Shown: positions 22,653-56,809 of the stretch, one piece after another | How the letters are laid out: every line of letters starts with the position of its first letter | How positions within the stretch are numbered: the stretch's first letter is position 1 | NCBI GenBank assembly: GCA_040398525.1 | Contig: JBBATY010000009.1 | Span: 22,416 to 86,415 of the forward strand | Reading direction: 5' to 3' | DNA from: Ilumatobacteraceae bacterium | GTDB taxonomy: Bacteria > Actinomycetota > Acidimicrobiia > Acidimicrobiales > Ilumatobacteraceae | Length of the DNA: 64,000 nt | The notes under the pieces: generated by a model | The model's database searches: none | What the model saw: the letters and a program-made list of their open reading frames with translations, nothing else | What the model was told of the DNA's origin: nothing | Position numbers and translations under genes: made by a program

Positions 22653-24206
22653 TCAGTACCACTGGTCGGGCATCTCGGCCTTGCGGCGGGCGACGAACTC
22701 GCGCAGTTCGGCGTCGACGGCGTCGTCGATGGGCGGAGGCTCGTAGCGGGCGAGCGTCTCGGCGACGAGCGCAGCCGCACGCTCTTCGGATGTGTGAGAG
22801 CCGTTGTCGCGCCACTGTTCGAACGAATCGTTGTCGCTGAGCGCCGGCTCGAAGAACGCTGTTTCGTAGTGCCTCAGTGTGTGTTGTGCACCGAAGAAGT
22901 GCTTGCCGGGCCCGACCTCCGCAAAGGCGTCGAGCGCGAACTGGTCGTCGTCGAGCGGCACGCCCTTGAGGAATGTGTGCGCAGCTCCGCACAGGTCGAG
23001 GTCCATCATGAACTTCTCGTACCCCATCGCCAGGCCGCCTTCGAGCCAACCGGCGCTGTGCAGGATGAAGTTCGCGCCACACAGCAGTGCCGCCATCATG
23101 CTGACGGCCGATTCGGTCATCGCCTGGCCGTCAGGCACCTTCGACGAGGTGAAGGCGCCCGAGCACCGCAAGGGCAGGCCGACCCGACGTGCCAGCTGCC
23201 CGACCAGGAACGATCCGAGCGCCGGCTCGGGCGTGCCGAAGGTCGGGCTCCCGCTGCGCAGCGCCATCGACGACAGGAAGTTCCCGTAGATCACCGGCGA
23301 GCCCGGCCGCACCAGCTGCCCGAGGGCCACCCCGACCAGGGTCTCGGCATGGGCTTGGGCGACCGCGCCCGCTGTAGTGACCGGGCCCATCGCTCCACCG
23401 AGGATGAACGGCACCACGACCGGGGCTTGGTTCGCCCGGGCATACGTCTTCAATGCTCCAGTCATCGTCGCGTCCCACACGAGCGGTGAGTTGACATTGA
23501 CATTGCCGAGGATCACGCATGAGCGATCGACGACATCGGCGCCGAAGGCGATGCGGGCCATCTCGATCGAGTCGGCCGCTCGCTCGGGTGCCGTGACCGA
23601 TCCCATGAACGGCCGGTCGCTGAAGCGGAGGTGGGTGTAGACCATGTCGAGGTGGCGCTTGTTCACCGGGACATCGGTCGGCTCGCACACCGTCCCTCCC
23701 GAGTGGTGGAGCCACGGCGACGACTGCCCGAGCTTCACGAATCGTTCGAAATCGGCGATGGTGGCATAGCGGCGGCCACCGGGCAGGTCGCGAACGAAGG
23801 GCGAGCCGTACGCGGGGGAGAGGACCACGCTGTTGCCCCCGATCCGGACCGATCGGTCGGGGTTGCGCGCCAACTGCTCGAACTCACGTGGGGCAGTGGC
23901 GCACAGCGCACGCACGTGCCCGGGGTCGAATCGCACGAGCGACCCGTCGACCGTCGCGCCTGCGGCACGGAACAGCTCGAGCGCCTCGTCGTCACCCCTG
24001 ATCTCGATGCCGACGTCACGGAGGAGACGATCCGCGTGGGCCTCGATAGTGGCAAGTCCCTCTTCTCCGACGAGCTCGTACGGGGGGATCTCGCGCGTGA
24101 TGTACGCAGTTCCCTGACGGCTCGCAGCGCCAGCGCGGGCCTGAGCCCGCCCGGCACGACCTCCTGCCCGACGTCGAGCCGGCAATCCGTCGTCGGAGCT
24201 TCCCAT
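22653..24206 (-). CDS. MttB-superfamily methyltransferase, non-pyrrolysine (quaternary/methylated amine:corrinoid methyltransferase candidate), paralogue 1
   Basis: The start is taken at the ATG at 24206, with GAGGGGG 9-15 nt upstream. The family pattern is recognisable (NVNSPLVWD, PFILGGAMGPVT, GSPTFGTPEP, SAGWLEGGL, GPGKHFFG). There is no in-frame stop. Confidence 0.85.
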   Translation of the reverse strand: MGSSDDGLPARRRAGGRAGRAQARAGAASRQGTAYITREIPPYELVGEEGLATIEAHADRLLRDVGIEIRGDDEALELFRAAGATVDGSLVRFDPGHVRALCATAPREFEQLARNPDRSVRIGGNSVVLSPAYGSPFVRDLPGGRRYATIADFERFVKLGQSSPWLHHSGGTVCEPTDVPVNKRHLDMVYTHLRFSDRPFMGSVTAPERAADSIEMARIAFGADVVDRSCVILGNVNVNSPLVWDATMTGALKTYARANQAPVVVPFILGGAMGPVTTAGAVAQAHAETLVGVALGQLVRPGSPVIYGNFLSSMALRSGSPTFGTPEPALGSFLVGQLARRVGLPLRCSGAFTSSKVPDGQAMTESAVSMMAALLCGANFILHSAGWLEGGLAMGYEKFMMDLDLCGAAHTFLKGVPLDDDQFALDAFAEVGPGKHFFGAQHTLRHYETAFFEPALSDNDSFEQWRDNGSHTSEERAAALVAETLARYEPPPIDDAVDAELREFVARRKAEMPDQWY

Positions 24207-24367
24207 TGTCCAGACCCCCTCGACAGCAGACCGGATCATGCCTCGTCGGGCGGCGAGGGTATCACCCGGGCTTGCAGCATCGTTGACCTGCTCCTGTGCT
24301 ACAACTACGGTCCTCTACGTGCTCCGGGACATCTGTGCCCCGGAGACCGATACACCCTGGGGGGGAC

Positions 24368-26095: not shown

Positions 26096-26120
26096 TCTGC
26101 AGTAGCAGCCTTCGGATGGA

Positions 26121-30135: not shown

Positions 30136-30136
30136 C

Positions 30137-30181: not shown

Positions 30182-30418
30182 TCAGTCGACGATGCGATCG
30201 ACGCTGGTGTCGCGCTGCACGGTGCACCAGCGGTGGCAGCCACCCGAGTGGAACCACCGCTCGGTCTGCACACCCGACCCGTTGGTGAAGAACCACACCC
30301 GGTGCAGGTCGCGTTCGATCGGGTCGGTGATCGACGCTGGCGCCTCGGGGTCTTCGCCGCCGAATCGGAACTCTTCCACCGGCCGCGGGCCGCAGTGTGG
30401 GCAGGGGATCGTCAGCAT
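30182..30418 (-). CDS. soxD: Sarcosine oxidase delta subunit-like
   Basis: 78 aa from the ATG at 30418. It reads MLTIPCPHCGPRPVEEFRFGG...HSGGCHRWC, a Cys3His zinc pattern typical of SoxD. Confidence 0.8.
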   Translation of the reverse strand: MLTIPCPHCGPRPVEEFRFGGEDPEAPASITDPIERDLHRVWFFTNGSGVQTERWFHSGGCHRWCTVQRDTSVDRIVD

Positions 30419-31635: not shown

Positions 31636-32057
31636 GCCACGGCCCCCAGTCGGTCGGGCACCTCGTGGAACGCCGAGCCCGACACGATGAGCAACGTTCG
31701 GTCGGCCTCCATCACCAGCTTGATGGCCAGACCGCACACCATGCCCTGGGCCAGTGCCGGCCGGGTGGTGGGCAGCGGCCACTCGAGCTTGTGGGTCAGT
31801 GCCGTCAACTGCGCCGCATCGAGCCAGGCGCCACGGAACATGGCCTCGGGTTCGATGATCGCATGCGGGTCGGCGGTGGCCACCGCAGCGGCGTCGTCGA
31901 CGGTGGCGTCGATGACCAAGGCGTCGTCGGGGGCGACGCGCACCATGATGGCGCCGGCTGGCCAGGTGGCCGCGTCGATGGCGGCAGGCTTGGCCGTGAT
32001 GCGCACGCCCATCAGGGTGGAGAATCGCATCGGTTCGAGTGCGTCAGAGGCGGGCAC
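31632..32057 (-). CDS. soxG: Probable sarcosine oxidase gamma subunit-like protein (short)
   Basis: Assigned by position (after soxA, before soxB) and size class only. The start is uncertain: GTG at 32057 lies about 6 nt after GGAGG and overlaps the soxA 3' end, and ATG at 32030 is the alternative. No strong motif was recognised. Confidence 0.4.
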   Translation of the reverse strand: MPASDALEPMRFSTLMGVRITAKPAAIDAATWPAGAIMVRVAPDDALVIDATVDDAAAVATADPHAIIEPEAMFRGAWLDAAQLTALTHKLEWPLPTTRPALAQGMVCGLAIKLVMEADRTLLIVSGSAFHEVPDRLGAVA

Positions 32058-34227: not shown

Positions 34228-36249
34228 TCAGGTCTCGTCGGCGCGCCGGATGGTGACCGGTTGACCGCCGAGTTGGTCGAAGGGGATATGGCAACGGATC
34301 ACGCCGCCATCGGGGGTAGGCGTGAGAGGGGGCTCGGTGGTGCGACAGAGGTCGCCGAGGAAGCGGGGGCACCGAGTGTGGAACACACAGCCGGAGGGGA
34401 CGTTCACTGCACTGGGGATCTCGCCCTCGAGACGGATGCGCTCGCGCTTGTCACCGTCGACCGACGGAGCTGCCGACAGCAGGGCCTCGGTGTAGGGGTG
34501 GTGCGGCCCGTCGAACACCCGCTCAGCTGGGCCGAGCTCCATGATCCGACCGAGGTAGAGCACGGCGATGCGGTCCGACAGGTACCGCACCACGCGAAGG
34601 TCGTGGGAGATGAACAGGTAGCTCGTGCGGCTGTCGCGCTGCAGGTCGCCGAGCAGGTTCAGGATCGCTGCCTGCACCGATACGTCGAGCGAGGAGGTCG
34701 GCTCGTCGCACACCACGATGCGCGGCTTGCCTGCGAACGCTCGGGCGATCGCGACGCGCTGCTTCAGACCGCCCGACAGCTGGACGGGCCGCATGTCGAG
34801 GTGGCGCTCGGTCAACCGCACGGCGCTGGTGATGGCGGTCAGCTCGCCTTCGACCTCGGCCGCCGGCACCTGCCCGAGACGGCGCAGGCTGCGGCCGACG
34901 ATGCGTCGCACACTGTGTCGGCGGTTGAGCGCCGAGTCCGGGTTCTGGAAGACGATCTGGATGGACCGGATCTGGTCGAGCGTTCGACGCTTGGTGCTCG
35001 TCGGCAGCTGCGCCCCGTCGAGGGTCAGCTCGCTGCCCTCGTCGGGAGGGGTGATCCCCAAGATGGCGTGGGCGAGCGTGGTCTTCCCGCTTCCGGACTC
35101 TCCGACCAGACCGAGGGTCTCACCGGGGAAGAGGTCGAGGTCGACGTCGCGGACTGCGTAGATCGGCTTGCCGGCCTGACGGAACGTCTTGCTCACCCCG
35201 CGCAGGGTCAGCAAGGGCCCGGCGGAGCGGTCGACGACCGATGGGAACCCACTCGGGAGCTCGGCGGCCGCCATTCCAGCCACCTGATCGGTGTGGTGGC
35301 AACGTACCGAACGACCGTCGAGGGTTGTCCACGGGGGCGCTTCCGATCGACACTGATCGGACGCGAGCGCGCAACGGTCGACGAACACACAGTTCGGCAG
35401 CTCGGCGCCGAGCACCGGCAGGAAGCCGGGAATCGTCTCGAGGCGTTGGGCCTCCTTGCGCGAGCCGTGCCGCGGCAAGCACCTCAGCAGCCCGACCGAG
35501 TACGGGTGCTGAGGATCGTCGAACACCTGCTGGGCGTCGCCCTCCTCGACCACCTGGCCCGCATAGAGCACACCGACCCTGTCGCACATGGAGCGGATCG
35601 CACCGAGGTTGTGGGAGATGAACAACACCGAGGTGCCGTACTCGCGGCGCAGTCCCCGGACCAGGTCGAGCACCTCGGCCTCGACGGTGGCGTCGAGACC
35701 AGTGGTCGGCTCGTCGAGGATGAGCAGCTGCGGGTTCGACGCGAGCGCCATCGCGATCACGACACGCTGCTGCATGCCGCCGGACAACTGGTGCGGGTAG
35801 CGGCTCAGCACCGACTCGGGATCGGCGATCTGGACCTTGGCCAGCATCTCGAGCGAGCGCTGGCGAGCCTCGTCCCTACCCAGACCGAGGACGTCGAACG
35901 CCTCCATCAACTGGGGCCCGACCCTGATGGTCGGGTTCATCGCCTGTCCAGGGTCCTGGTACACGATCGACGCATCGCGAGCACGCAACTGGCGGAGCTC
36001 GTCGCTGCCGAGCGACATCACGTCCCGCCCGCCGAGCCTCACCGACCCACCGAGGATGCGAGCGTTGTCCGGCAGGTATCGGACGGCGGCGTACGCGGCC
36101 GTGCTCTTGCCACAGCCGCTCTCACCTACCAGGCCGTACGACTCGCCCGGCTGGATGGCGAACGAGACCCCGCGGAGCACCTCGCGCGTGATCCCGCGCA
36201 CGACGTACCCGAGCCGTAGGTCGACGAACTCCAGTGCTGCGTCGCTCAC
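34228..36249 (-). CDS. Fused double ATP-binding protein (DppD-DppF type), paralogue of 28072..30135
   Basis: GTG at 36249 overlaps the upstream stop (GTGA). Motifs are GESGCGKST/LSGGMQQRV and GESGSGKTT/LSGGLKQRV. By eye it is about 70 % identical to the other ATPase over the N-terminal block. Confidence 0.85.
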   Translation of the reverse strand: MSDAALEFVDLRLGYVVRGITREVLRGVSFAIQPGESYGLVGESGCGKSTAAYAAVRYLPDNARILGGSVRLGGRDVMSLGSDELRQLRARDASIVYQDPGQAMNPTIRVGPQLMEAFDVLGLGRDEARQRSLEMLAKVQIADPESVLSRYPHQLSGGMQQRVVIAMALASNPQLLILDEPTTGLDATVEAEVLDLVRGLRREYGTSVLFISHNLGAIRSMCDRVGVLYAGQVVEEGDAQQVFDDPQHPYSVGLLRCLPRHGSRKEAQRLETIPGFLPVLGAELPNCVFVDRCALASDQCRSEAPPWTTLDGRSVRCHHTDQVAGMAAAELPSGFPSVVDRSAGPLLTLRGVSKTFRQAGKPIYAVRDVDLDLFPGETLGLVGESGSGKTTLAHAILGITPPDEGSELTLDGAQLPTSTKRRTLDQIRSIQIVFQNPDSALNRRHSVRRIVGRSLRRLGQVPAAEVEGELTAITSAVRLTERHLDMRPVQLSGGLKQRVAIARAFAGKPRIVVCDEPTSSLDVSVQAAILNLLGDLQRDSRTSYLFISHDLRVVRYLSDRIAVLYLGRIMELGPAERVFDGPHHPYTEALLSAAPSVDGDKRERIRLEGEIPSAVNVPSGCVFHTRCPRFLGDLCRTTEPPLTPTPDGGVIRCHIPFDQLGGQPVTIRRADET

Positions 36250-37145
36250 CGGTCGAGGACCCCCTGGATACCGTCGGCGATCAGGTTGATCGCCACGACG
36301 AGGGATGCAAGTGCGACGGCGGGGACCACACACGGCCACCAGACATCGCTCAGCAGTCCAGCCCGCTCTTCGAAGATCGTGCGACCCCAGTCGGGGGAGC
36401 CGGGCTGGGTGCCGAAACCGATGAAGGCCAGACCCGCCATGGTGAACACGGCGTAGCCGAGGCGAACGGTGAACTCCACCACGATCGGTCCCATGACGTT
36501 CGGCAGGATCTCGACGAACATGATGTAGCTCGACCGCTCACCACGCAGTTCGGCAGCACGAACGTAGTCGAGGTTGCGTTCGGCTTGGACTGCTGCACGA
36601 ATCGTTCGGGCGATGATCGGACCGAACAGCGCACCGATCAGAAGGATGATCGTGAAACGACCACTCGACAGAGCGGTGAGTGCGAGGAGTGCCACGAGGA
36701 TGAGCGGAAGGCTCATCAGCGCTTCGATGAACCGACTCAGGATGTCGTCGATCGGGCCGCGGAAGTAGCCCATCAACAACCCGAGCACGACACCGATGAT
36801 CGTGCCGAGCACGACTGCGGCAGGCGCGACGATCATGATCTCCCGCGCCCCGTAGATCGCCCTGCTGTAGACGTCGCGACCGAAGCGATCGGTGCCGAAC
36901 CAATAGCCCTCGTTGAAGAACGGACGGATCCACTTGCTGGTCGGGTCCTGCTTCGACGGGTCGTGCGTTGCGAAGAACCCCGGAGCGACTGCGCAGAGCA
37001 CCCAGAAGAGGAAGATCGCAACACCGACGAGGAACGTCCTCGAGCGCAGCAGCATGCGCCGCGTCTCTCGACGAATGCTCGAGGTCGCGACTCCTGTCGG
37101 AGCAGGCGAAACGGTCTCCGGAGCCGAAGCGGACAGGTCGCTCAT
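36246..37145 (-). CDS. ABC transporter permease (DppC/OppC-like)
   Basis: ATG at 37145 (MSDLSASAPETV...) overlaps the upstream stop (ATGA). It has FGTDRFGRDVYSRAI and YVRAAELRGERSSYIMFVEILPN. Confidence 0.9.
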   Translation of the reverse strand: MSDLSASAPETVSPAPTGVATSSIRRETRRMLLRSRTFLVGVAIFLFWVLCAVAPGFFATHDPSKQDPTSKWIRPFFNEGYWFGTDRFGRDVYSRAIYGAREIMIVAPAAVVLGTIIGVVLGLLMGYFRGPIDDILSRFIEALMSLPLILVALLALTALSSGRFTIILLIGALFGPIIARTIRAAVQAERNLDYVRAAELRGERSSYIMFVEILPNVMGPIVVEFTVRLGYAVFTMAGLAFIGFGTQPGSPDWGRTIFEERAGLLSDVWWPCVVPAVALASLVVAINLIADGIQGVLDR

Positions 37146-38089
37146 TGGACGTACCCGTACCTGATCCGCGGGTTGAGCCATGCGCTCAACACGTCGGCGA
37201 CGAGGTTCAAGAGCATCGCGATGGCCCCCACGATGAAGACCGAGGCCATGAGCATCGGGATGTCCCGATCGCTCGCAGCGTCGAAGATGAGCAGGCCGAG
37301 GCCTCGGTAGTTGAACAACGTCTCGGTGACGAGCAGGCCACCAAGGAGGTAGCTGATCTGCACCGCGATCACGGCGATCGTGGGCAGCAGCGCGTTGCGC
37401 AACACGTGTCGACGCAAGACCGTGCGCCGTGGCAGCCCCTTCAACGTTGCAGTCCTCGTGTAATCCGCAGCGAGCGCCTCGATCGTGCCGGCGCGGGCCA
37501 TCCGCGCGAGGTACCCGAACAGGATGGCGCTCAGGGTGACCGCCGGCAGGATGAGCACCTCGATCTGCTCCCACAACGAGCCCTTGGCAGACCCGCCTGG
37601 CGGAAGCCATCCGAGCTTCACGGCGAAGACGATGATCAGGACGATCCCGATCACGAACTCCGGGGTGACCGCGAGGCTGAGCCCCGTGATCGTGACCGCA
37701 CGGTCGGTGGCCTTCCCTTTGCGCAACGCAGCGAGAGCACCCCCGACGATGCCGAGCGGAACGACGATGAGCACCGTCATCGCCGCCAGCTTCATCGACG
37801 CCCAGAGCGCCTTCGGGATGAAGTCCATCACCGGCGCCTTGTACTTGTACGAGTTCCCGAAATCACCGGTCAGCACTCCGCCGAACCAGCGGAGGTACCG
37901 ACCGACCAGCGGTCCGTCGACCCCCAACTCGCGGTTGAGGTTGTCGACGGACTGCTGGTCGGCGAACGGCCCGAGGATCGCTCTACCGACGCTGCCGGGA
38001 AGCACCGCAGCAATGAAGAACACCACCACGCTCAACAAGAACAGCGTGATGAGCGCCAGACCAAGCCGGCGGAGCACGAAACGACCCAT
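37142..38089 (-). CDS. ABC transporter permease (DppB/OppB-like)
   Basis: 315 aa. It starts MGRFVLRRLGLALITLFLLSVVVFFIAAVLPGS and carries YTRTATLKGLPRRTVLRRHVLRNAL. Confidence 0.9.
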   Translation of the reverse strand: MGRFVLRRLGLALITLFLLSVVVFFIAAVLPGSVGRAILGPFADQQSVDNLNRELGVDGPLVGRYLRWFGGVLTGDFGNSYKYKAPVMDFIPKALWASMKLAAMTVLIVVPLGIVGGALAALRKGKATDRAVTITGLSLAVTPEFVIGIVLIIVFAVKLGWLPPGGSAKGSLWEQIEVLILPAVTLSAILFGYLARMARAGTIEALAADYTRTATLKGLPRRTVLRRHVLRNALLPTIAVIAVQISYLLGGLLVTETLFNYRGLGLLIFDAASDRDIPMLMASVFIVGAIAMLLNLVADVLSAWLNPRIRYGYVQ

Positions 38090-38112
38090 CGGTGACGATC
38101 ACCCAGCGGTGA

Positions 38113-39888
38113 TCAGGAGATGGTTGCGTTGTCGGTGAAGTAGTGGCCCATGCCGGTCGCCACCGCACCGGCGACATTGGCACGCGTCGCCGACAGGAAG
38201 TTGATGGCGAACGGGATGATCATCGGCACTTCGTCCTGCAGGACCGCGGTGATCTTCTCGCCGGCAGCTGCCTGGCTCTGCAGATCGGGCGACGACGAGT
38301 AGGTGTCGACCAGCGAGTCGAAGTCCGCATTGGCGAACTCCGCCGCGTTCCACACACCCGCGCCGTCCTCGACGCTCGTGAAGCTCTTGAGCGCTGCGTT
38401 GAGGTAGACGTCGGGAACGCCGCGGTGGCCGTAGTCGGTGATGCCGATGTCGCTGCCGGGAACGCTCGGGTCGTAGGTGCGGACCCAGTTCTTGTCGTAG
38501 TAGTCGTCGCGCAGCTCGATCGTCAGGTTGATGCCGATCTCCTTGGCGTTGTTCTGCAGGATGACCGCCAGGTCGGGCGCCTCGAAGTAGTTGATGCCGT
38601 AGAGCGTGGCATCGAAGCCGCCGCCGGCGTCGGCCACCAGCTGCTTGGCCTTCTCCACGTCGAACGGGGTCTCCGGGACGTTGCCTGCCGACGGGTACAT
38701 CGCGAACAGCGGCGAGTCGTAGGCGGTCGCCGCACGGCCGCCGAGCAGCGCCTCGATGATCGCCGCACGGTCGGTCGCAAGGGCCATGGCCTGGCGGATG
38801 CGCTTGTCGGCGAACGGGCCTTCCGAGCAGCGCATGTGGATCTGGCGATGGTTCGCCGACGCGATCTCGCTGATGATGTAGTCCGGGTTGTCGAACAGCG
38901 ACTCGGCGCCAGAGAAGTTGAACTGCGGGAGGGCGTCGATCTCGCCGGCCTGCAGCGCAGCGACGGCTGCAGCCTGATCGCTGAAGAAGGTGAACTCGAG
39001 CCCGGCCAGCTTCAGCGGGTTGCCCCAGTAGGCGGGGTTCGGCACGTAGACGATGCCGCTCACGGCATCGAAGCTCTTGATCGTCCACGGGCCCGTGGTG
39101 GCGATCTTGCCTGCGGCCACGTCGGCGGCGAAGTTCGACGTGTCGGTCACCGATGCCGGCAGGATGATCGCGTTGTAGTTGTCGCTCGAGACGATGTACG
39201 GGAAGTTGGCGAACGGGCCATTGAGCTTGAACACGACCGTGGCGTCGTCGAGCGCCGTCGTGCCACCCGGCGAGAGCTTGCCGGTGCTGAACGCGGAGAG
39301 TGCGTTGGAGTTGTTGTCCGGGTTGACCAGACGCTCCATCGTGGCCACGACATCGGCCGCCGTCACCGGCGCGCCATCGCTGAACTTGGCGTTCGGGTTG
39401 AGCTTGAACGTCCACTCCGAGGCATCTGCGTTCGCCGACCACTCGGCGGCGATCGAGGGGCTGAGCGTCAGGTCGGAGTTCGAGAGCGTGAGGAACTGGC
39501 CGACCTGGCTGAGCAGGATCAGGCCGGCACCGTCGTTGATCAGCACCGGGTCGAGCGTCGCCGAGGCTGCCGAGGGTGCGTAGTTGGCGCAGCGCAGCGT
39601 GCCACCGACGGTCGGAGCGGCCGTGGTCTCGGTCGGAGCAGCCGTCGTCTCCGTGCCGCCACCGCTGGTGGTCGCCGGCGCAGCGGTCGTGCCGGTCGAC
39701 TCCTCGTCACCGCCGCAGGCTGCGAGCAGCGCGCCGATGGTCGGCAGCGACATGCCGACCACGGTGCCTCGACGGATGAACGACCGGCGGGACAGGCGCC
39801 CGGCAAGGTACTCGTCGATGACGTGGTTGCTGATCTCTCCCTGCGAGCGACGAATTGCGTCGATGCGGCCCGAGGACTTGTTGTTCAC
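38113..39888 (-). CDS. ABC transporter substrate-binding protein, family 5, Tat signal plus lipobox; paralogue of 24368..26095
   Basis: The start is taken at GTG 39888, with GGGGG 5 nt upstream. TTG at 39900 is an alternative. It has SRRSFIRRGTVVGMSLPTIGALLAACGG, a TETTAAP repeat linker and AAEWSANADASEWTFKLNPNAKFSDG. Confidence 0.85.
   Translation of the reverse strand: MNNKSSGRIDAIRRSQGEISNHVIDEYLAGRLSRRSFIRRGTVVGMSLPTIGALLAACGGDEESTGTTAAPATTSGGGTETTAAPTETTAAPTVGGTLRCANYAPSAASATLDPVLINDGAGLILLSQVGQFLTLSNSDLTLSPSIAAEWSANADASEWTFKLNPNAKFSDGAPVTAADVVATMERLVNPDNNSNALSAFSTGKLSPGGTTALDDATVVFKLNGPFANFPYIVSSDNYNAIILPASVTDTSNFAADVAAGKIATTGPWTIKSFDAVSGIVYVPNPAYWGNPLKLAGLEFTFFSDQAAAVAALQAGEIDALPQFNFSGAESLFDNPDYIISEIASANHRQIHMRCSEGPFADKRIRQAMALATDRAAIIEALLGGRAATAYDSPLFAMYPSAGNVPETPFDVEKAKQLVADAGGGFDATLYGINYFEAPDLAVILQNNAKEIGINLTIELRDDYYDKNWVRTYDPSVPGSDIGITDYGHRGVPDVYLNAALKSFTSVEDGAGVWNAAEFANADFDSLVDTYSSSPDLQSQAAAGEKITAVLQDEVPMIIPFAINFLSATRANVAGAVATGMGHYFTDNATIS
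39610..39651 (-). repeat. Coding tandem repeat (2 x 21 nt, 19/21 identical) encoding ETTAAPT ETTAAPT in the SBP linker
   Basis: The + strand reads ggtcggagcggccgtggtctc followed by ggtcggagcagccgtcgtctc. Confidence 0.75.
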
Positions 39889-40022
39889 GTTGACCCCCAA
39901 AAATTGTCGAAACGGTTGTATCAGTATGGCACGCGCACGCGTCGTAGGGGAACAACCTCCGTTGCTGTGGTGCACGCCGGCTGCGGCGCTGCGTACATCG
40001 CCACCGACATAGGCTTACGAAC

Positions 40023-41186
40023 ATGGACCCGCAGCGGCGACGCGAGCTACACCTGCAACACGTGCGCGACGCGCTCACCCGGGCGGAAGCGGCCGGGTAC
40101 GACGAGGCGTGGGCGATGCCGAGCGCGTTCTACACCGAGCAGGCGGTGCTCGACCTCGAATGTCGGGAGCTGTTCGGCCGCGAATGGGTGTGCATCGGGC
40201 GCGCCGACGAGATCCCCGAGCCTGGCGACTTCATGACCTTCCAACTGTGCGACGAGCCGCTGGTCGCCGTGCGCTCAGCCGACCATGCAATCCGGGTGTT
40301 GTCGAACGTGTGCCGCCATCGCGGTGCGCTGGTCGCCGAGGGTCGCGGCACGGCGAGCCACCTGCAATGCCCGTACCACCACTGGACCTACGAGCTCGAC
40401 GGCACGCTGGCACGTGCGCCTCGGCTCGAGCAGCATCGCACCTTCGATCCCGCCCAGTGCTCGCTGCCGTCGTTCGCCACCGAGGATTGGATGGGCTTTC
40501 TGTTCGTCTCGCTCGCCGACGAACCCGCGCCACTGGCACCGCAGCTCAAGGGCATCGAGGATCTGGTGCGGCCCTATCACCTCGAACTCGCCACCACGCG
40601 CTTCGTCGCCGACGAGGTCTGGCCGACCAACTGGAAGTGCTTCGTCGAGAACTTCATGGAGGGCTACCACCTCACGCCACTGCACCGCACGACGCTGCAT
40701 CCGGTGAACCCCACCCGATTGTGCCGCCACTATCCGCCCGGCGACGCCTACTTCGGCTACCACGCCGGCTTCACGCCTGGCCTGCCGCGCCTCGAGCCCG
40801 GCCACCCCGACCTCACACCAGAGCAGGTCGACGACTGCATCATGTTCGCGGTCCCGCCCGGGCTGGTGGCCGGCTGCGCGTCCGACTACAGCTCATTCAT
40901 CTGCGTGCAGCCGGAGTCGGTCGACCGCGTGCGCCTGAAGCTGGGGTTGATGTTCTTCGGTGACCGATGGACCGAGGACGACATCGAGACAGCGGCACGG
41001 CTGTTCCAGGAGACCAATGCCGAGGATCGTGCGGTCCTCGAAGGGATCACCCGCGGCCATGCCTCAGGACGGCACAGCGCAGGTCCCCTCGCGCCCGCAG
41101 CGTTCGAGGGGACCCTGCACGACTTCTCCCGGTATCTCGCCCGCCGGTTGGCCGCGGCACTCGAGCAGGCTGTCCCGAACCACTGA
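40023..41186 (+). CDS. Rieske [2Fe-2S] non-haem iron oxygenase, alpha-subunit type (GbcA / Stc2 / CntA-like N-methyl amine demethylase family)
   Basis: 387 aa. The Rieske motif is CRHRG...CPYHHW and the mononuclear iron motif is NFMEGYHLTPLH. Confidence 0.8.
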   Translation: MDPQRRRELHLQHVRDALTRAEAAGYDEAWAMPSAFYTEQAVLDLECRELFGREWVCIGRADEIPEPGDFMTFQLCDEPLVAVRSADHAIRVLSNVCRHRGALVAEGRGTASHLQCPYHHWTYELDGTLARAPRLEQHRTFDPAQCSLPSFATEDWMGFLFVSLADEPAPLAPQLKGIEDLVRPYHLELATTRFVADEVWPTNWKCFVENFMEGYHLTPLHRTTLHPVNPTRLCRHYPPGDAYFGYHAGFTPGLPRLEPGHPDLTPEQVDDCIMFAVPPGLVAGCASDYSSFICVQPESVDRVRLKLGLMFFGDRWTEDDIETAARLFQETNAEDRAVLEGITRGHASGRHSAGPLAPAAFEGTLHDFSRYLARRLAAALEQAVPNH

Positions 41187-43740: not shown

Positions 43741-45357
43741 TCAGTAGTCGGTGGCGACGCCGCCCTCGGCGACGCGCCGAGCGACGAACTCGTCGAGCTC
43801 CTGGCGTCGGTCGGCGGGCATGATGGGCGCTTCGTAGGCTTCGAGGAACCTGGTGACGAGCTGCTTGGCCTTGCCGTCGGCGGTGGGCGAGCCGGCTTCC
43901 TCCCAGCTCTCGTAGTTGCGCCAGTCGCTGAGGAAGGGGCGGTAGAAGGCGTCGCGGAACCGGGCCTGGGTGTGGGCGGTGCCGAAGAAGTGGCCACCTG
44001 GGCCAACCTCTTCGATGGTGTCGATGGCCAGCGTGTCGGCGTCGACGATGACCGGCTCCATCATCTTGGTGACCATTTGCAGCAGGTCGGCGTCGAGCAG
44101 CATCTTCTCGAGGCTGGCGTGGAGGCCGCCCTCCATCCACCCGGCGCCGTGCATCATGAAGTTGACGCCACCCATGACCGCGCCCCACAGCGCGAAGACG
44201 CTCTCGTAGGCGGCCTGGGCGTCGAGCGCGTTCGCAGCGCACACGTTCGAGCTGCGGTAGGGGATGCCGTAGCGACGAGCGAGTTGGCCACCGATGATTG
44301 CGGTGCGCACGTACTCGGGGGTGCCGAAGGCCGGTGCGCCGCTCTGCATGTCGACGTTCGAGGTGAACCCGCCGTACATGGCTGGGGCGCCGGGGTTGAC
44401 GATCTGCAAGAAGGCGATTCCTGCGAGCGCTTCGGCGTTCTGCTGGGCCAGAGCACCGGCCAGTGTGATGGGAGCCATCGCCCCGGCCAGCGTGAAAGGG
44501 GTGACCACGACGGGCTGGTTGTGGAGTGCGAACTCGATCATCCCCTGAGCCATCGGGATGTCGAGGCGCAGCGGCGAGTTGGTGTTCACCACGGTGATGA
44601 GCGACGGCTCACGGTCGATGGTGGCCTGATCGACCCCACGGGCGATGCGCACCATCTCGATGCAGTCGATGTTGCGTTGGCGACCGAGGCTGTAGCAGTA
44701 CATCCCCTTGTCGGTCATCGTCAGGATGTCGTGCGACGCCTCGAGGTGGCGCACCGAGTGGTGGATGTCGATCGGCTCGACCGGATAGCCCGGCACGTAG
44801 TGGATGACGTTCAGCATCTGGGCCAGCTTCAGCAGGTCGCGGAAGCCTTCGCGGTCACCGGTGCGGCGAACGCCGTTGCGGTCGATGTAGTGCGGGGTGC
44901 TCGCCACGGTGCCGAAGGTGAGCCAGCGACCACCGATGCGCACGTTGTGATCCGGGTTCCAACTGTGCAGCGTGTACTCGCTGGGCGCAGTGGTGATGGC
45001 CGACTCGATCAGCTCGCGGGGGAACCGCACCCGATGGTTGCTCTCGTCGACGTCGGCGCCGGCCGCCTTCATGATGCTGCGCGACTCGGGGCACATGAAC
45101 TCCATGCCGATGCGCTCGAGGATGACCAGCGAGGCTTCGTGGATCGACTCCAGCTCGTCGGCCGACACGACCTCGGTGTGGTTGAGGCGCATCTGCGGCT
45201 GCTTGAAGGGCAGCTGCTCGGGGAGCCGCGGCCCGGCACCCGCGCCGCGATCTCGGCCACGACGTCGCGGCGCAGCGCCCGGGTCGCTCGGGGGGACGGA
45301 TCCGGCGTCGATCTGCGGCTCGTTCACGGTGCGCGACACTACACCGGCCGACATCAT
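43741..45357 (-). CDS. MttB-superfamily methyltransferase, non-pyrrolysine, paralogue 2
   Basis: 538 aa. It has NTNSPLRLD, VVTPFTLAGAMAPITLAGAL, GAPAFGTPEY, GAGWMEGGL and GPGGHFFG. The N-terminal tail is Arg/Gly-rich. There is no in-frame stop. Confidence 0.85.
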   Translation of the reverse strand: MMSAGVVSRTVNEPQIDAGSVPPSDPGAAPRRRGRDRGAGAGPRLPEQLPFKQPQMRLNHTEVVSADELESIHEASLVILERIGMEFMCPESRSIMKAAGADVDESNHRVRFPRELIESAITTAPSEYTLHSWNPDHNVRIGGRWLTFGTVASTPHYIDRNGVRRTGDREGFRDLLKLAQMLNVIHYVPGYPVEPIDIHHSVRHLEASHDILTMTDKGMYCYSLGRQRNIDCIEMVRIARGVDQATIDREPSLITVVNTNSPLRLDIPMAQGMIEFALHNQPVVVTPFTLAGAMAPITLAGALAQQNAEALAGIAFLQIVNPGAPAMYGGFTSNVDMQSGAPAFGTPEYVRTAIIGGQLARRYGIPYRSSNVCAANALDAQAAYESVFALWGAVMGGVNFMMHGAGWMEGGLHASLEKMLLDADLLQMVTKMMEPVIVDADTLAIDTIEEVGPGGHFFGTAHTQARFRDAFYRPFLSDWRNYESWEEAGSPTADGKAKQLVTRFLEAYEAPIMPADRRQELDEFVARRVAEGGVATDY

Positions 45358-46650: not shown

Positions 46651-47277
46651 GTGGCCAGGACTCCCGACCTCGTACGGCGTCAGGAACTGCTCGACCGCAT
46701 CGTCGATTACCTCGCCGCGCACGGACTGGCTCATGTGACGCTGCGACCGCTGGCCACGGCCCTGGGAGTGAGCATCAACCGGCTCGTGCACCACTTCGGC
46801 TCCAAAGAAGAGCTGATCGCGACCGCGCTCGGTCGGGTCGTCGAGCTCCAGGCCGAGGTGCAGGACGAGTGGATGCGCCGGGACGCCGACATCACCCTGG
46901 CCGAGCTGCACCGGAAGTGGTGGCGGTGGATGAACTCGTCCCCGGAGAACCTCGCCCTCGTCCGCCTCGGCTACGAGGCTGCTGCGCTCGACACCACCGT
47001 CAGCGGCCTTCCGGGCGAGGTCCGCGCCGACCAGCTCGCTGTCTGGCGTCGCGGGTTCGAGAAGATGCTCGTCAACGAAGGCCTCGAGCCTGAGCTGGCC
47101 CGAGTCGAGGCGTCGATCCAGAAGGTCCTCTTCACCGGGATCGTGATCGAGCTGCTCGCGACCGGCGATAAGAAACGGCTGACCCAGACCCTCGAGACCT
47201 CCCTCGACCGGCTGACGAGGCGACTCGACACGGTCACCTCGGCCACCGATCAGCGTGCGGCCTTCTCCTCTTCGTAG
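46651..47277 (+). CDS. TetR family transcriptional regulator
   Basis: 208 aa from GTG 46651, with an N-terminal HTH (HVTLRPLATALGVSINRLVHHFGSKEEL). TAGGGT lies 6 nt upstream of the start, so the transcript may be leaderless. Confidence 0.85.
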   Translation: MARTPDLVRRQELLDRIVDYLAAHGLAHVTLRPLATALGVSINRLVHHFGSKEELIATALGRVVELQAEVQDEWMRRDADITLAELHRKWWRWMNSSPENLALVRLGYEAAALDTTVSGLPGEVRADQLAVWRRGFEKMLVNEGLEPELARVEASIQKVLFTGIVIELLATGDKKRLTQTLETSLDRLTRRLDTVTSATDQRAAFSSS

Positions 47278-50872: not shown

Positions 50873-50923
50873 GGTTGCGAACCTAGTCCTGCTGCTGCGG
50901 GCGCGCCGCCTACGCTCGCCGCG

Positions 50924-52141: not shown

Positions 52142-52151
52142 GGTCGCGGCC

Positions 52152-53024
52152 GTGGGCATGCCGCGCGACATCGGGGTGATCGATCTGATGCTCGCCATCC
52201 CCGAGCCCGGTCGACGGAGCGAGTGGTACTCGTTCCTGCGCCCGAACCTGCGCGACGACGAGAGCCGTTCGATGGAGATGCCCGCCCAGCACCTGTTCCG
52301 CGACATCCCCGACGATCCCACCGATGCCGACATGATCGCCTGGACGCTGGGCGAGATGGACCGTCATGGCATCGACCGGGCCCTCATCGGGGTGAGCCTC
52401 GACGGTGGCATCCAGAACGAGGCGTTGGAGCGCCACCCCGAGCGCTTCGTGGGATGTCTGCATGTCGACCCGAACGACGGGATGGCCGCCGTGCGGGCGA
52501 TCCGTGAGGCCCACCGACGGTTCGACCTGCGTGGCGTGTCGTTGTTCCCGTCCGGCTGCACCCCGCCGGTGCCGATCGACGATCGCAGGATGTACCCCGT
52601 GTACACGACGTGCGCCGAGCTCGGGGTACCGGTGCTCTGCTGCGTCGGCGTTCCCGGGCCGCGGGTGCCGATGGCGCCCCAGCACGTCGAGCGGATCGAC
52701 GAGGTGTGCTGGTGGTTCCCCGAGCTCACCTTCGTGATGCGCCACGGCGCAGAGCCATGGGTCGATCTGGCGGTGAAGCTGCTCCAGAAGTGGCCGAACC
52801 TGTACTACTCGACGTCGGCGTTCACTCCTCGTCGGTACCCGCAGGAGATCATCGACTACGCGAACGGACGTGGGGCCGACAAGGTGATGTACGCCGGCTA
52901 CTTCCCGATGGGGCTCAGCCTCGAGCGGATCTTCCGCGAGCTCCCGGATGTCCCGCTGCGCGAAGAAGTCTGGCCGAAGTTCCTTCGCGACAACGCTGTG
53001 CGCGTGTTCGGGCTCGATCGATGA
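52152..53024 (+). CDS. Amidohydrolase-2 (ACMSD-like metal-dependent hydrolase/decarboxylase) family protein
   Basis: 290 aa from GTG 52152 (ATG 52158 is an alternative). It has VIDLMLAIP near the N-terminus and a TIM-barrel hydrolase pattern (HGIDRALI, MRHGAEPW, KVMYAGYFP). Confidence 0.65.
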   Translation: MGMPRDIGVIDLMLAIPEPGRRSEWYSFLRPNLRDDESRSMEMPAQHLFRDIPDDPTDADMIAWTLGEMDRHGIDRALIGVSLDGGIQNEALERHPERFVGCLHVDPNDGMAAVRAIREAHRRFDLRGVSLFPSGCTPPVPIDDRRMYPVYTTCAELGVPVLCCVGVPGPRVPMAPQHVERIDEVCWWFPELTFVMRHGAEPWVDLAVKLLQKWPNLYYSTSAFTPRRYPQEIIDYANGRGADKVMYAGYFPMGLSLERIFRELPDVPLREEVWPKFLRDNAVRVFGLDR

Positions 53025-53998
53025 CCGCGACAGCCGTGCCCGACACATCGGGAGCGCGGTGGCCATGGCCGGTCCCGTTCGGTTGGTTCGCTGTCGCGTG
53101 GGCGGACGAGTTGCTCCAAGGGCAGATCGTCCCCCGGAGGCTGTTCGGCGCCGACACGGTGCTATGGCGCGACGACACAGGCACGGCCCACCTGCACGAC
53201 GCGTACTGCCCGCACCTCGGGGCGCACCTCGGCCACGGGGGATGCGTCCGCGGGGTCAACATCGTCTGCCCGTTCCACGGATGGGAGTTCGACCCACAGG
53301 GCCGCAACGCAACGATCCCGTACAGCGGGCGGACGAATGGCCTCGCGCGGCTCCGTCACTACCCGGTCGTCGAACGCAACGGCCTGGTGCTGGCCTGGCA
53401 CCACCCCCACGCCGCCGACCCGCTCTGGGAGGTGCCCGAGGTTCCCGAGTTCGGCGACCACGGGATCGCCGAGGAGTTCAGCGACTCGCACCGCCGTGTG
53501 TTCGACATCGCCGCTCCGTGGCAGGAGATGGCCGAGAACGGTGTCGACACCGCCCACTTCAGGTACGTCCACGGCACAGCCGAGGTGCCTGTCCTCGACA
53601 GCTACGAGACCGAGGGCCATCGCAGTCGGATGCGGTCACGTCAGTTCTTCGTCACACCCCGCGGCACGACCGAGGGTCGAATCGACAGCGACGGATACGG
53701 CCCCGGCTTCTCGGTGGTCCGCTTCTCCGGCATCGTCGAGACCCTCCTGCTGGGGTGTGCCACACCCGTCGAGCGCGACCGCTGCGAGATGCGCTTCACG
53801 TTCCGGGTGCGACGTTTCGCCGACGACCGCGTCACGTCGACCGTCGGTGCGGCCTTCGTCGACGAGGTCTCGCGGCAGTTGCTCGAGGACAAGCCGATCT
53901 GGGAGCACAAGCGCTACCTCGACCGACCCGCACTTGCCGACACCGACGGCCCCTTCATCGCCTTCCGGCGGTGGGCGGCGCAGTTCTATGCCGACTAG
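53021..53998 (+). CDS. Rieske [2Fe-2S] oxygenase, KshA-like family
   Basis: ATG at 53021 overlaps the upstream stop (ATGA). The Rieske motif is CPHLGAHL...CPFHGW and the iron motif is ENGVDTAHFRYVH. Confidence 0.8.
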   Translation: MTATAVPDTSGARWPWPVPFGWFAVAWADELLQGQIVPRRLFGADTVLWRDDTGTAHLHDAYCPHLGAHLGHGGCVRGVNIVCPFHGWEFDPQGRNATIPYSGRTNGLARLRHYPVVERNGLVLAWHHPHAADPLWEVPEVPEFGDHGIAEEFSDSHRRVFDIAAPWQEMAENGVDTAHFRYVHGTAEVPVLDSYETEGHRSRMRSRQFFVTPRGTTEGRIDSDGYGPGFSVVRFSGIVETLLLGCATPVERDRCEMRFTFRVRRFADDRVTSTVGAAFVDEVSRQLLEDKPIWEHKRYLDRPALADTDGPFIAFRRWAAQFYAD

Positions 53999-54023
53999 CT
54001 CGACCCTCTAGGAGCACCGACCC

Positions 54024-54854: not shown

Positions 54855-54897
54855 CCACGTCGGTCGCCCCTGCTGCTGCACGGCTAGGGTGACCGCC

Positions 54898-55275: not shown

Positions 55276-55294
55276 GCCGAGGGCGCTCTCCCGA

Positions 55295-56809
55295 ATGAGT
55301 CGAGCCGACCGACTGCGCGCCCGTCGCAGCGGCAGCGGTGTGCGATCGCAACCGTTCCGCCAGCTCCGCAACCCGTACCGACCGATCGAGGTGCTCTCCG
55401 TCGACCAGGTCGAGCATCTGCACCGCGCGGCACTGCGCTTGCTGGCCGACACGGGGATGCGCGTCCTCGACGCCGGAGCACGCGACCGCTACCGAGCGGC
55501 GGGCTGCTCAGTCGACGAGCTCGTGGTGCGCATCGACCCCGACCTCGTCGAACAGGCGCTCACGACCGCTCCGAGCGAGTTCCGCCTCCGGGCCCGCAAC
55601 CCCGAGCACACCATCACGATCGGCGGCGACCACGTCGTGTTCGGCGCCATCGGCGGGCCTGCCTTCGTGCACGACCTCGACCGCGGCCGACGAGCCGGTA
55701 CGTCAGCCGAGGTCGACGACTACCTGAAGCTGATCCAGAGCCTCGGCGTCATCCATCAGGAGGGCGGCGGCCCGTTCGAGGCACTCGACCTCCCGCCGGA
55801 CACGCGGCACCTCGATCTCAACCTCAGCCTGATCCGTCTGCTCGACAAGAACTGGCAGGGCAATGCGCTCGGCCGGGACCGAGCCGCCGATTCCATCGAC
55901 ATGGCGGCGATCGCGCTCGGCGTCGATCGTGACGGGCTGCTCGACGAGCCAGCCGTGCTCGCGATCATCAACACGAACACACCGCTCACGCTGGACGTCG
56001 CCATGGCCGAGAGCCTGATGGAGCTCGCCGAGGCAGGACAGGTCGTGTGCGTCACCCCGTTCACCCTGGCTGGCGCCATGGCACCAGCCACGCTTGCAGG
56101 GGCCCTCACGCTGCAGCATGCCGAGGCCCTCGCCGGGGTCACCCTCACCCAGATCGTGAGACCTGGCGCACCAGTTGTCTACGGCTCGTTCACCTCCAAC
56201 GTCGATCTCCGTAGCGGATCACCGGCGTTCGGCACACCGGAGTACACCAAGGCTGCGCAAGCCGGTGGTCAATTGGCTCGCAGATGCGGGTTGCCCTACC
56301 GCTCGTCCAACACCAACGCATCCAACACCGTCGACGCCCAGTCCACCTACGAGAGCTCGATGTCGCTGTGGGGCGCGGTGATGGGTGGGGCCAACCTGAT
56401 CAACCACGCAGCAGGTTGGCTCGAAGGTGGCCTCACCGCATCGTTCGAGAAGCTCATCATCGACGCCGAGATGCTGCAGATGATGGCCGAATATCTGCGC
56501 CCGATCGAGGTCGACGACGACTCGCTCGCCCTCGACGCCATCGCCGAGGTGGGTCCAGGTGGGCACTTCTTCGCCTCACCGCACACGCTCTCGCGCTACG
56601 AAACGGCGTTCTACACGCCGATGGTGTCGGATTGGCGCCCGTTCGAGACCTGGTCCGAGCAGGGCTCGACCAACGCCACCACCCGCGCGAACGGGATCTG
56701 GAAGCAATTGCTCGACCACTACGAGCAGCCGGCGCTCGATCCGGCGATCGACGAGCAGTTGGTCGACTTCGTGGCGAGACGCAAAGAGGTGCTCGGCTCA
56801 GCCCGCTGA
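55295..56809 (+). CDS. MttB-superfamily methyltransferase, non-pyrrolysine, paralogue 3 (close relative of paralogue 2)
   Basis: 504 aa. It has NTNTPLTLD, VCVTPFTLAGAMAPATLAGAL, GSPAFGTPEY, AAGWLEGGL and GPGGHFFA. There is no in-frame stop. Confidence 0.85.
   Translation: MSRADRLRARRSGSGVRSQPFRQLRNPYRPIEVLSVDQVEHLHRAALRLLADTGMRVLDAGARDRYRAAGCSVDELVVRIDPDLVEQALTTAPSEFRLRARNPEHTITIGGDHVVFGAIGGPAFVHDLDRGRRAGTSAEVDDYLKLIQSLGVIHQEGGGPFEALDLPPDTRHLDLNLSLIRLLDKNWQGNALGRDRAADSIDMAAIALGVDRDGLLDEPAVLAIINTNTPLTLDVAMAESLMELAEAGQVVCVTPFTLAGAMAPATLAGALTLQHAEALAGVTLTQIVRPGAPVVYGSFTSNVDLRSGSPAFGTPEYTKAAQAGGQLARRCGLPYRSSNTNASNTVDAQSTYESSMSLWGAVMGGANLINHAAGWLEGGLTASFEKLIIDAEMLQMMAEYLRPIEVDDDSLALDAIAEVGPGGHFFASPHTLSRYETAFYTPMVSDWRPFETWSEQGSTNATTRANGIWKQLLDHYEQPALDPAIDEQLVDFVARRKEVLGSAR

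Follow-up and report, generated by a model that had tools for sequence, protein, structure and literature searches.

Three non-pyrrolysine MttB-family paralogues and one MtgC-type corrinoid protein in a methylated-amine catabolism island of an Ilumatobacteraceae bacterium

Background

Three MttB-family methyltransferase genes, here called P1, P2 and P3 in the order of their positions, are dispersed over 34 kb within a 64,000-nt stretch of contig JBBATY010000009.1 of an Ilumatobacteraceae bacterium (the whole stretch is called the window hereafter). We consider it likely that their products are the substrate-specific MT1 components of a cobalamin-dependent methyl-transfer system of the aerobic MtgBCD-like type, in which they would share one MtgC-type corrinoid protein. 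All three are full-length members of the family (PF06253) and lack a pyrrolysine (Pyl) codon; the same window encodes orthologues of MtgC, MtgD, RamA and the DUF1638 protein, and P1 and P2 each form with a flavoenzyme gene a pair that is conserved in other genomes. That all three load the one corrinoid protein of the window is what we infer from this gene content. The locus adds another case of an aerobic pathway that was described recently and does not represent a new mechanism, and the feeding of several substrates into one corrinoid protein is a plausible scheme that was already proposed by Mausz et al. (2025) and demonstrated in E. limosum.

The aerobic pathway has been studied in R. pomeroyi, in which MtgBCD is genetically required for the demethylation of glycine betaine (PMC12478193). 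Up to seven PF06253 paralogues were presumed to feed one MtgC in this pathway, and 5% of the marine mtgC reads were assigned to Actinomycetota (Mausz et al. 2025, PMC12478193). The arrangement of many paralogues around one carrier has been shown biochemically in E. limosum, where MtpB is specific for proline betaine, MtcB for carnitine, MtyB for gamma-butyrobetaine and MthB for phosphocholine; the MthK/MthB pair of this organism further shows that choline must be phosphorylated before demethylation by an MttB-family enzyme. In the MtgB of D. hafniense (DhMtgB), glycine betaine is held by Y97 and F356 through cation-pi contacts and by R312 and H348 at its carboxylate (Picking et al. 2026, PMC13080624), and the substitution Y97A raises the Km several hundred-fold (PMC13080624). 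Our literature search returned no work connecting either the Ilumatobacteraceae or the S. meliloti family member of known structure (PDB 4YYC) with MttB function.

The host lineage is uncultured and known only from metagenome-assembled genomes (MAGs), and the named homologues of P1, P2 and P3 likewise belong to MAGs, assigned to Ilumatobacteraceae, Acidimicrobiaceae or unclassified Actinomycetota. A scan with P2 that took one genome per species found 585 relatives, the best 80 of which are all such Acidimicrobiia MAGs, with P2 orthologues 63-99% identical; judging from the record titles, they were recovered from lakes, rivers, glacier-fed streams, groundwater and soil. The window has a G+C content of 68%, and its gene order recurs on contigs that encode 99-100% identical proteins. 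According to Pfam, NCBIfam and PDB searches of the other open reading frames (ORFs), the window is one large island of methylated-amine catabolism (Table 1). Since several O2-dependent enzymes are encoded in it (Rieske oxygenases, luciferase-like monooxygenases, TauD and BetA), the host is taken to be an aerobe. An Rfam search of the window for cobalamin riboswitches and other RNAs gave no match at the gathering threshold. Loci of related or compared genomes are denoted by L-numbers (L001 etc.), L018 being the S. meliloti locus.

Results and discussion

P1, P2 and P3 are full-length, deeply diverged MttB-family proteins

The original prediction, made from the DNA alone, had placed three uninterrupted MttB-like ORFs in the window, and all three were recovered at the positions given in it: each matches PF06253 with 638-751 bits versus a cut-off of 25 and covers profile positions 1-500, and a tblastn search with a family member finds exactly three copies. 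Their description as non-Pyl enzymes holds as well, since none of them has an internal stop codon and their scores against TIGR02369, the model of the Pyl-type trimethylamine methyltransferase, are 261-311 bits versus a cut-off of 525. The open frame of P1 spans 22653-24239(-), and the start proposed for it at 24206 agrees with that of a 517-aa database protein 100% identical to P1; the exact start of P2 is uncertain, its conserved basic tail beginning at about residue 29. The sequence blocks that had been quoted for the three proteins are all present.

It had further been claimed that two of the paralogues are closely related and one is distant. The branching order agrees with this, P2 and P3 being sisters (see below), but the closeness does not, as P2 and P3 are only 48% identical, compared with 44% for P1 and P3 and 39% for P1 and P2. 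Because the pairwise identities are only 39-48%, P1, P2 and P3 are all deep paralogues, and the picture of two recent duplicates and one outlier does not apply. P1 is 54% identical to 4YYC and 65-66% identical to its alphaproteobacterial homologues, and the orthologues of P3 are 70-99% identical. The identity of the three proteins to the solved structures of DhMtgB (2QNE/9YCE) and 4YYC, 35-54% over the full length, suggests that they have the TIM-barrel fold of the family and its C-terminal extension, which contributes to the active site of the partner. The P1, P2 and P3 types occur together on a single contig in at least one other genome.

Four orthogroups are shared by Ilumatobacteraceae and Alphaproteobacteria

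A phylogeny with characterised family members had been suggested along with the original prediction. The tree built here by neighbour joining (42 sequences, 477 columns, 200 bootstraps), which has DhMtgB, 4YYC and Pyl-type MttB as references and is rooted on the last, resolves four orthogroups, namely P1-type (bootstrap 100), P2-type (98), P3-type (100) and 4YYC-type (100). Every one of them contains both Ilumatobacteraceae and Alphaproteobacteria members with bootstrap support of 98-100, and they fall into two sister pairs, P1-type with 4YYC-type and P2-type with P3-type, each supported by a bootstrap of 100. DhMtgB, by our count the sole biochemically characterised sequence in the tree, is placed outside all four orthogroups (bootstrap 92-100). 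Each window protein has 55-66% identity to its counterparts in Alphaproteobacteria, more than the 39-48% found among the three themselves; therefore, the paralogues are of ancient origin, and each type has since been either retained or exchanged as such.

These relationships bear on an alternative reading, in which P1-P3 are redundant glycine betaine MtgB isozymes that differ only by regulation, kinetics or partner operon. We regard this as unlikely. P1-P3 and 4YYC do branch beside DhMtgB and far from Pyl-type MttB, as isozymes of MtgB would, and R. pomeroyi is a precedent in that it induces two PF06253 proteins, MtgB1 and MtgB2, on glycine betaine, choline and carnitine; however, a split that is ancient and has been retained in two phyla, with each paralogue closer to its alphaproteobacterial counterpart than to its fellows, is not what redundancy would predict.

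The putative betaine pocket is partly conserved and differs between the types

The active-site positions of DhMtgB were compared in an alignment of 366 sequences. Over the P1, P2, P3 and 4YYC types, the R312 position is Arg in 360 of 360 sequences and the H348 position is His in 359 of 360. On the other hand, the Y97 position is Tyr in the P1 type (120/120) and the 4YYC type, Ala or Gly in the P2 type and Gly in the P3 type, and the F356 position is Gly in all types, with Ala in 20 of the 120 P1-type sequences. Accordingly, P1, P2 and P3 all retain R312 and H348 and have Gly in place of F356, while Y97 is kept in P1, changed to Ala in P2 and to Gly in P3, so that the full glycine betaine quartet is absent from P1, P2 and P3 alike. 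As R312 and H348 are kept and Y97 and F356 are changed, each of P1-P3 probably binds an acidic quaternary amine, in pockets unlike that of DhMtgB and unlike one another. The invariance of the two residues that hold the betaine carboxylate would also suit glycine betaine isozymes, but the group-specific residue 97 and the loss of F356 would not, considering the effect of Y97A on the Km of DhMtgB.

The residue that takes the place of pyrrolysine, which the original prediction had asked for, cannot be pinned to one amino acid, since the aligned column belongs to a loop that contains an indel.

The Arg/Gly-rich N-terminal tails reported for the three proteins are real, conserved within each orthogroup and located inside the Pfam profile, but they are a trait of the wider family and not specific to the window. 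Their motifs are RxRTGGRAxR...AFIxRxIPxY in the P1 type, GRRRGRDR...GPRLPEQ in the P2 type and RxxRAxxR...LPxxxxxNPY in the P3 type, and they are absent from DhMtgB and Pyl-type MttB. Many P2 orthologues in the databases are called as 483-aa proteins from an internal ATG, a start that is too late and misses the tail; in one of these '483-aa' genes the in-frame sequence ahead of the annotated ATG does encode the tail (L005:9851-10000). We considered Tat signals as an explanation of the tails and rejected it, as the basic region leads into no hydrophobic stretch and the family profile extends over the tail.

One corrinoid protein is encoded together with its methyltransferase and reactivation genes

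The original prediction had assumed a single corrinoid protein, and the window indeed encodes one, grouped with the genes of the pterin-binding methyltransferase, the RACo/RamA protein and the DUF1638 protein. The MtgC/MtgD/RamA/DUF1638 set of the aerobic type is complete (1-4400), and the operon to which it belongs lies on the minus strand at the left end of the window in the order DMGDH-2, DMGDH-1, choline-kinase-like gene, corrinoid protein, DUF1638, PF13769, pterin methyltransferase, RACo/RamA. The corrinoid protein has the motifs DIHDIG, SALLTT and VGGAP, which correspond to the canonical DxHxxG, SxL and GG, and its best NCBIfam model is that of MtgC, with a score under the cut-off of the model. 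The DUF1638 gene begins 6 nt past the corrinoid stop codon, and the RACo/RamA gene, truncated here by the window edge, encodes 688 aa in the same species. The choline-kinase-like gene is immediately upstream of the corrinoid gene and translationally coupled to DMGDH-1, an order kept in L100 and L101, and it is absent from the corrinoid operons of the other Ilumatobacteraceae examined. DMGDH-1 and DMGDH-2 are 50% identical to each other, and either is 32-33% identical to DMGDH-3, which lies beside P2.

The 4YYC gene sits in the S. meliloti locus described as MtgBCDE (Mausz et al. 2025, PMC12478193). The window proteins are 76% (corrinoid protein), 63% (pterin methyltransferase), 51% (RamA), 47% (DUF1638) and 43% (PF13769) identical to their counterparts in that locus. 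Thus a PF06253 methyltransferase, an MtgC-type corrinoid protein, MtgD, RamA and the DUF1638 protein occur together in one window of an actinomycetotal genome. The small PF13769 protein was also seen within the corrinoid operon in both phyla, its S. meliloti homologue (L018:10150-10452) being just upstream of MTHFR_C and MTHFR. The similarity across the two phyla is unusually high for the corrinoid protein (L018:13701-14399), P1 (65%), the pterin methyltransferase and the OYE-type flavoprotein downstream of P1 (59%), which suggests that the whole system was exchanged horizontally.

Further right of the corrinoid operon, the window encodes an OpuA-type importer, a BetA choline dehydrogenase (over the equivalog cut-off), an IclR regulator, FolD and formate-tetrahydrofolate (THF) ligase. 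The FolD protein is 79% identical to that of L001, and the pair of FolD and formate-THF ligase genes is also found downstream of the P1-OYE pair in L001. The abundance of glycine betaine genes in the window, i.e. BetA, the OpuA-type importer, three DMGDH-family enzymes and a Sox-like enzyme, is a further point that could be made for glycine betaine isozymes.

In related genomes the carrier is linked to P2 and to a fourth paralogue

Among the Ilumatobacteraceae, 8-10 genomes have the succession corrinoid protein, DUF1638, PF13769, pterin methyltransferase, RACo, 4YYC-type MttB and non-canonical MTHFR, and then, after a short gap, P2 and DMGDH-3; the P2 orthologue is located 2-4 kb from the block that runs from the corrinoid gene to the MttB gene. 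In L005, the corrinoid gene is directly upstream of the P2 orthologue. The fourth MttB type that follows RACo (in L080, L086, L093, L095 and others) is 61-62% identical to S. meliloti 4YYC; the 277-aa ORF beside it has no Pfam support as an MTHFR, but a match to PDB 7xg9 (5e-24) supports this assignment. In the species of the window, RACo is followed up to the contig end by a gene in the same orientation that overlaps its stop codon by 4 bp, and a 4YYC-type fourth paralogue with an MTHFR gene is probably present just left of the window.

The three paralogues differ in the conservation of their neighbourhoods

P1 was said to sit with an OYE-type demethylase and a family-5 ABC importer, and this linkage proved stable: in L001-L003, P1 orthologues are always divergent from the importer and followed by a 680-aa flavoprotein with OYE and Pyr_redox_2 domains. 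Furthermore, Shinella has a 65%-identical MttB gene with a gene for a 59%-identical OYE-type flavoprotein 31 bp downstream of it. The PDB relatives of the flavoprotein include histamine and trimethylamine dehydrogenases, and one homologue, with 57% identity, carries the annotation N-methylproline demethylase. StcD and DgcA are members of the same family. A set of heterotetrameric sarcosine-oxidase-like (Sox-like) genes lies between the P2 and P1 modules in the window as well as in L005 and L006, and in relatives P2, DMGDH-3, the Sox-like genes, importer 'a', P1 and the OYE gene form one contiguous cluster.

The neighbours named for P2 fared unevenly. A DMGDH-3 orthologue is directly downstream of the P2 orthologue on the same strand in 44 of the 47 genomes with enough downstream sequence, and its match to mammalian DMGDH is as strong for DMGDH-3 of the window as for DMGDH-1. 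The link to the enolase-superfamily (MR/MLE) gene is weaker, as 18 of 62 P2 loci have it upstream in divergent orientation; its product is 43% identical to that of an MR/MLE gene adjoining an MttB gene in Mesorhizobium. The Rieske gene, which had been called GbcA-like, belongs to the wider group of quaternary-amine oxygenases but is closer to the carnitine monooxygenase CntA and is shared with the nearest relatives only: together with importer 'b' it makes up an insertion (34228-41186) that separates the Sox-like genes from DMGDH-3 and recurs in the closest relatives (L024) alone, and importer 'b', which is 36-63% identical to importer 'a', is absent from L001, L005 and L006. An assignment of the Rieske protein as GbcA itself was rejected, since it scores 161 bits against the NCBIfam GbcA model with its cut-off of 670 and CntA is its best PDB match. 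HpbD, the hydroxyproline betaine epimerase, was also rejected as the identity of the MR/MLE protein, whose match to HpbD structures is only 1.6e-20, well behind those to uncharacterised MR/MLE proteins.

Several other features were observed around P2. No reductase partner for the CntA/Stc2-like Rieske protein was noticed nearby. The O2-dependent (Rieske) and B12-dependent routes to quaternary amines stand side by side in this genome. An ORF at ~48615-49610 (+) combines SBP_bac_3 and ligand-gated ion channel domains (GluR0-like) and lies between a luciferase-like monooxygenase and a pyridoxal-phosphate (PLP) decarboxylase, and the block at 49625-54000 that comes after the TetR gene of P2 (PLP decarboxylase, class-V aminotransferase, Amidohydro_2, KshA-like Rieske oxygenase) is conserved in L006, L024 and L037.

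For the isozyme alternative, the neighbourhoods of P1 and P2 are unfavourable in two respects. The partner flavoenzymes are of different families, OYE for P1 versus DMGDH for P2, and genes of racemase or epimerase type (MR/MLE, Asp/Glu racemase, proline racemase family) recur alongside, for which the achiral glycine betaine has no need.

P3 had been placed beside FKBP and EamA genes. This position is real and conserved, P3 orthologues of Ilumatobacteraceae keeping their chromosomal place near FKBP with RpiR and TauD downstream, but it gives no hint of a substrate and includes no catabolic neighbour; promoter-like and terminator-like sites were sought around P3 and none was found. A 631-aa ORF (56798-58693, -) of coding-like composition and without a Pfam match converges on P3 and overlaps its 3' end by 12 bp; other contigs of the same species have it annotated with a length of 625 aa. 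The alphaproteobacterial P3-type genes, on the other hand, adjoin DMGDH-like or OYE-like flavoenzymes, Sox genes, racemases and Opp-like importers, with an overlapping DMT transporter gene in two cases.

The isolation of P3 in Ilumatobacteraceae, where it has neither a conserved catabolic nor a corrinoid neighbour, raises the question of whether at least one of the paralogues does not work through the corrinoid protein at all, being a dead relic, using another cofactor or acceptor, or having a role other than methyl transfer; it may be added that the activity of the P1, P2 and P3 orthogroups is a predicted one. We nevertheless hold this to be very improbable, because full-length orthologues that are 70-85% identical across dozens of species-level genomes indicate purifying selection, the acid-binding Arg and His are invariant, all characterised members of the family methylate a corrinoid (PMC8604678, PMC12155760, PMC13080624), and the P3-type genes of Alphaproteobacteria are in catabolic clusters with N-demethylating flavoenzymes and transporters.

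Table 1. Genes of the window that are discussed in the text, with their coordinates, strands and the database matches that support them
Feature	Coordinates	Strand	Support
RACo/RamA-type reductive activator (2Fe-2S + ASKHA)	1..1758, C-terminus cut by window edge	-	Pfam Fer2, RACo_linker, Raco_middle, RACo_C_ter
MtgD-type pterin-binding methyl-corrinoid:THF methyltransferase	1771..2670	-	Pfam Pterin_bind; NCBIfam PRK07535 357 bits vs cut-off 259
Small PF13769 ('virulence factor') protein	2667..3026	-	Pfam; 119-aa gene in L100
DUF1638 protein, reactivation-module component in aerobic split MetH/Mtg systems	3028..3675	-	Pfam DUF1638 2e-25; 215-aa gene in L100
MtgC-type corrinoid (cobalamin-binding) protein, presumed shared methyl acceptor	3681..4400	-	Pfam B12-binding, B12-binding_2
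Choline/ethanolamine-kinase-family protein	4501..5424	-	Pfam Choline_kinase 64 bits vs cut-off 29; PDB 3dxq 6e-107; LicA 2e-32
DMGDH-1, DMGDH/sarcosine-dehydrogenase family	5421-7862	-	Pfam; PDB DMGDH 1e-164
DMGDH-2, DMGDH/sarcosine-dehydrogenase family	7859 to ~10300	-	Pfam
FolD	17837-18700	-	Pfam
Formate-THF ligase	18697-20478	-	Pfam
OYE (FMN) + Pyr_redox_2 flavoprotein, directly downstream of P1, candidate oxidative N-demethylase	20526..22589	-	Pfam
P1, non-Pyl MttB-family methyltransferase, P1-type orthogroup	22653..24206	-	Pfam MTTB E 4e-226
Family-5 (Opp/Dpp-like) ABC importer 'a' (binding protein, two permeases, fused ATPase), divergent from P1	24296..30135	+	Pfam
Sarcosine-oxidase-like genes: SoxD; SoxB-like; small ORF; SoxA-like (Fer2_4 + GCV_T)	30182-30418; 30427 to ~31650; (small ORF between); 32044-34218	-	Pfam, NCBIfam
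Family-5 ABC importer 'b'	34228..39975	-	Pfam
Rieske oxygenase alpha subunit, CntA/Stc2/GbcA group (quaternary amines)	40023..41186	+	PDB CntA 6y8j 2e-41 best, then Stc2
DMGDH-3 (DAO + FAO_M + GCV_T), directly downstream of P2	41210..43660	-	Pfam; mammalian DMGDH 7e-166 full length
P2, non-Pyl MttB-family methyltransferase, P2-type orthogroup	43741..45357	-	Pfam MTTB E 9e-192
Enolase-superfamily (MR/MLE) enzyme, possible racemase/epimerase, divergent from P2	45429..46595	+	Pfam
TetR-family regulator by P2 module	46651..47277	+	Pfam; conserved near P2 orthologues
P3, non-Pyl MttB-family methyltransferase, P3-type orthogroup	55295..56809	+	Pfam MTTB E 1e-194

A proposed shared cobalamin-dependent pathway with several candidate substrates

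The gene content is consistent with the following pathway. Each MttB-family enzyme would bind a betaine, i.e. an acidic quaternary amine, and give one of its N-methyl groups to the Co(I) form of the corrinoid protein, from which the pterin-binding methyltransferase would hand the methyl group to THF, while RamA/RACo and the DUF1638 protein would re-reduce the cofactor whenever it becomes oxidised. The one-carbon unit would then be oxidised by FolD and formate-THF ligase (together 17837-20478), and the tertiary amine that is left would be demethylated by the neighbouring flavoenzymes, namely the OYE-type flavoprotein after P1, and DMGDH-3 followed by the Sox-like enzyme after P2.

Several points weigh against a shared MtgBCD-like system served by P1-P3. 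None of the three genes adjoins the corrinoid operon of the window, the distances being 18-51 kb, and the window contains no homologue of the S. meliloti bmt/MtgE, of its MTHFR or of the non-canonical MTHFR of relatives; the MtgE and MTHFR genes may be located elsewhere in the genome. The pocket residue F356 is missing in P1-P3 and Y97 in P2 and P3, so that the betaine pocket differs from the only one that is structurally defined. The activity of all four orthogroups is deduced from their sequences, 4YYC having been deposited with an unknown ligand, and the references of the tree are limited to DhMtgB, 4YYC and Pyl-type MttB. Finally, DMGDH-like, Sox-like and OYE-like partners adjoin all four types in Alphaproteobacteria. 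With these points taken into account, we still consider P1-P3 as MT1 components around one carrier to be the likely reading of the locus.

As to the substrates, we lean somewhat towards P1, P2 and P3 having different ones, because of their ancient split, their co-retention in the same genomes, their different partner enzymes and the Y97 signature. The gene context cannot name these substrates, since DMGDH-like, Sox-like and OYE-like partners accompany every type somewhere, and specific assignments are therefore doubtful at best. P2 might use glycine betaine or another trimethyl betaine, with demethylation in three steps by P2, DMGDH-3 and Sox. For P1, a cyclic betaine with two N-methyl groups is conceivable, for instance proline betaine, from which P1 would form N-methylproline; two steps would be required, by P1 and the StcD-like OYE protein. 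No particular substrate is proposed for P3. By analogy with MthK/MthB of E. limosum, and given the choline-kinase-like gene beside the corrinoid gene, phosphocholine is an equally speculative candidate for one of the paralogues.

A broader proposal, which seems to us possible though not to be favoured at present, is that the P1-OYE and P2-DMGDH-3(-MR/MLE) modules found in both phyla are cobalamin-dependent and O2-independent first demethylases for betaines other than glycine betaine, and thus represent new specificities in the MttB superfamily. The candidate substrates may then include proline or hydroxyproline betaine, other chiral amino-acid betaines, and phosphocholine by way of the choline-kinase-like gene, and the modules may run in aerobes alongside Rieske oxygenases of the Stc2/HpbBC/CntA type.

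Comparison with known systems

The MtgBCD(E) systems of R. pomeroyi, Phaeobacter inhibens and S. meliloti, which double as a split methionine synthase through the homocysteine module MtgE and a MetF2-type MTHFR, share with the window the set of components, an aerobic host, several PF06253 paralogues per genome and genes for the later demethylations nearby. The window differs from them in its actinomycetotal host, in having neither MtgE nor MTHFR, and in the choline-kinase-like gene of its corrinoid operon; in S. meliloti it is moreover the 4YYC type that adjoins mtgC, whereas P1-P3 belong to the other types. 4YYC is the closest solved structure to P1, with which it shares the motif AGWLEGGL and a basic N-terminal tail, and it is part of an mtgC locus; however, it belongs to an orthogroup of its own, the Ilumatobacteraceae members of which follow RACo and do not take the positions of P1, P2 or P3.

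DhMtgB is likewise a non-Pyl enzyme, with 35-40% full-length identity to P1-P3; R312 and H348 are shared with all three and Y97 with P1, but it falls outside the four orthogroups, lacks the basic N-terminal extension, and has Phe at position 356 and Tyr at position 97, where P1-P3 have Gly and P2/P3 have Ala/Gly, respectively. MtpB, MtcB, MtyB and MthB of E. limosum, likened here by description only, resemble P1-P3 in that several specific MttB paralogues supply one chain from cobalamin to THF, and in the link to a choline kinase (MthB). They differ in belonging to an anaerobic acetogen, whose operons do not contain the oxidative N-demethylases found beside P1 and P2. Pyl-type MttB (Methanosarcina barkeri, PDB 7XCL) has the Pfam family and presumably the TIM-barrel fold in common with P1-P3, which in contrast have no in-frame UAG, are only 25-29% identical to it, score below the TIGR02369 cut-off and differ from it at the R312 and H348 positions.

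Conclusions

Lakes, rivers, glacier-fed streams and soils are common habitats of the Ilumatobacteraceae, to judge from the record titles. If the methyl groups of several osmolytes do pass through one B12 carrier in these bacteria, aerobic cobalamin-dependent demethylation would reach beyond the marine Proteobacteria, and it would add to the environmental demand for cobalamin. Furthermore, the four orthogroups, with their characteristic partner enzymes and the diagnostic residue 97, provide concrete and ranked targets for work on substrate specificity in the MttB family, and several of them have orthologues in culturable Shinella, Mesorhizobium and Sinorhizobium.

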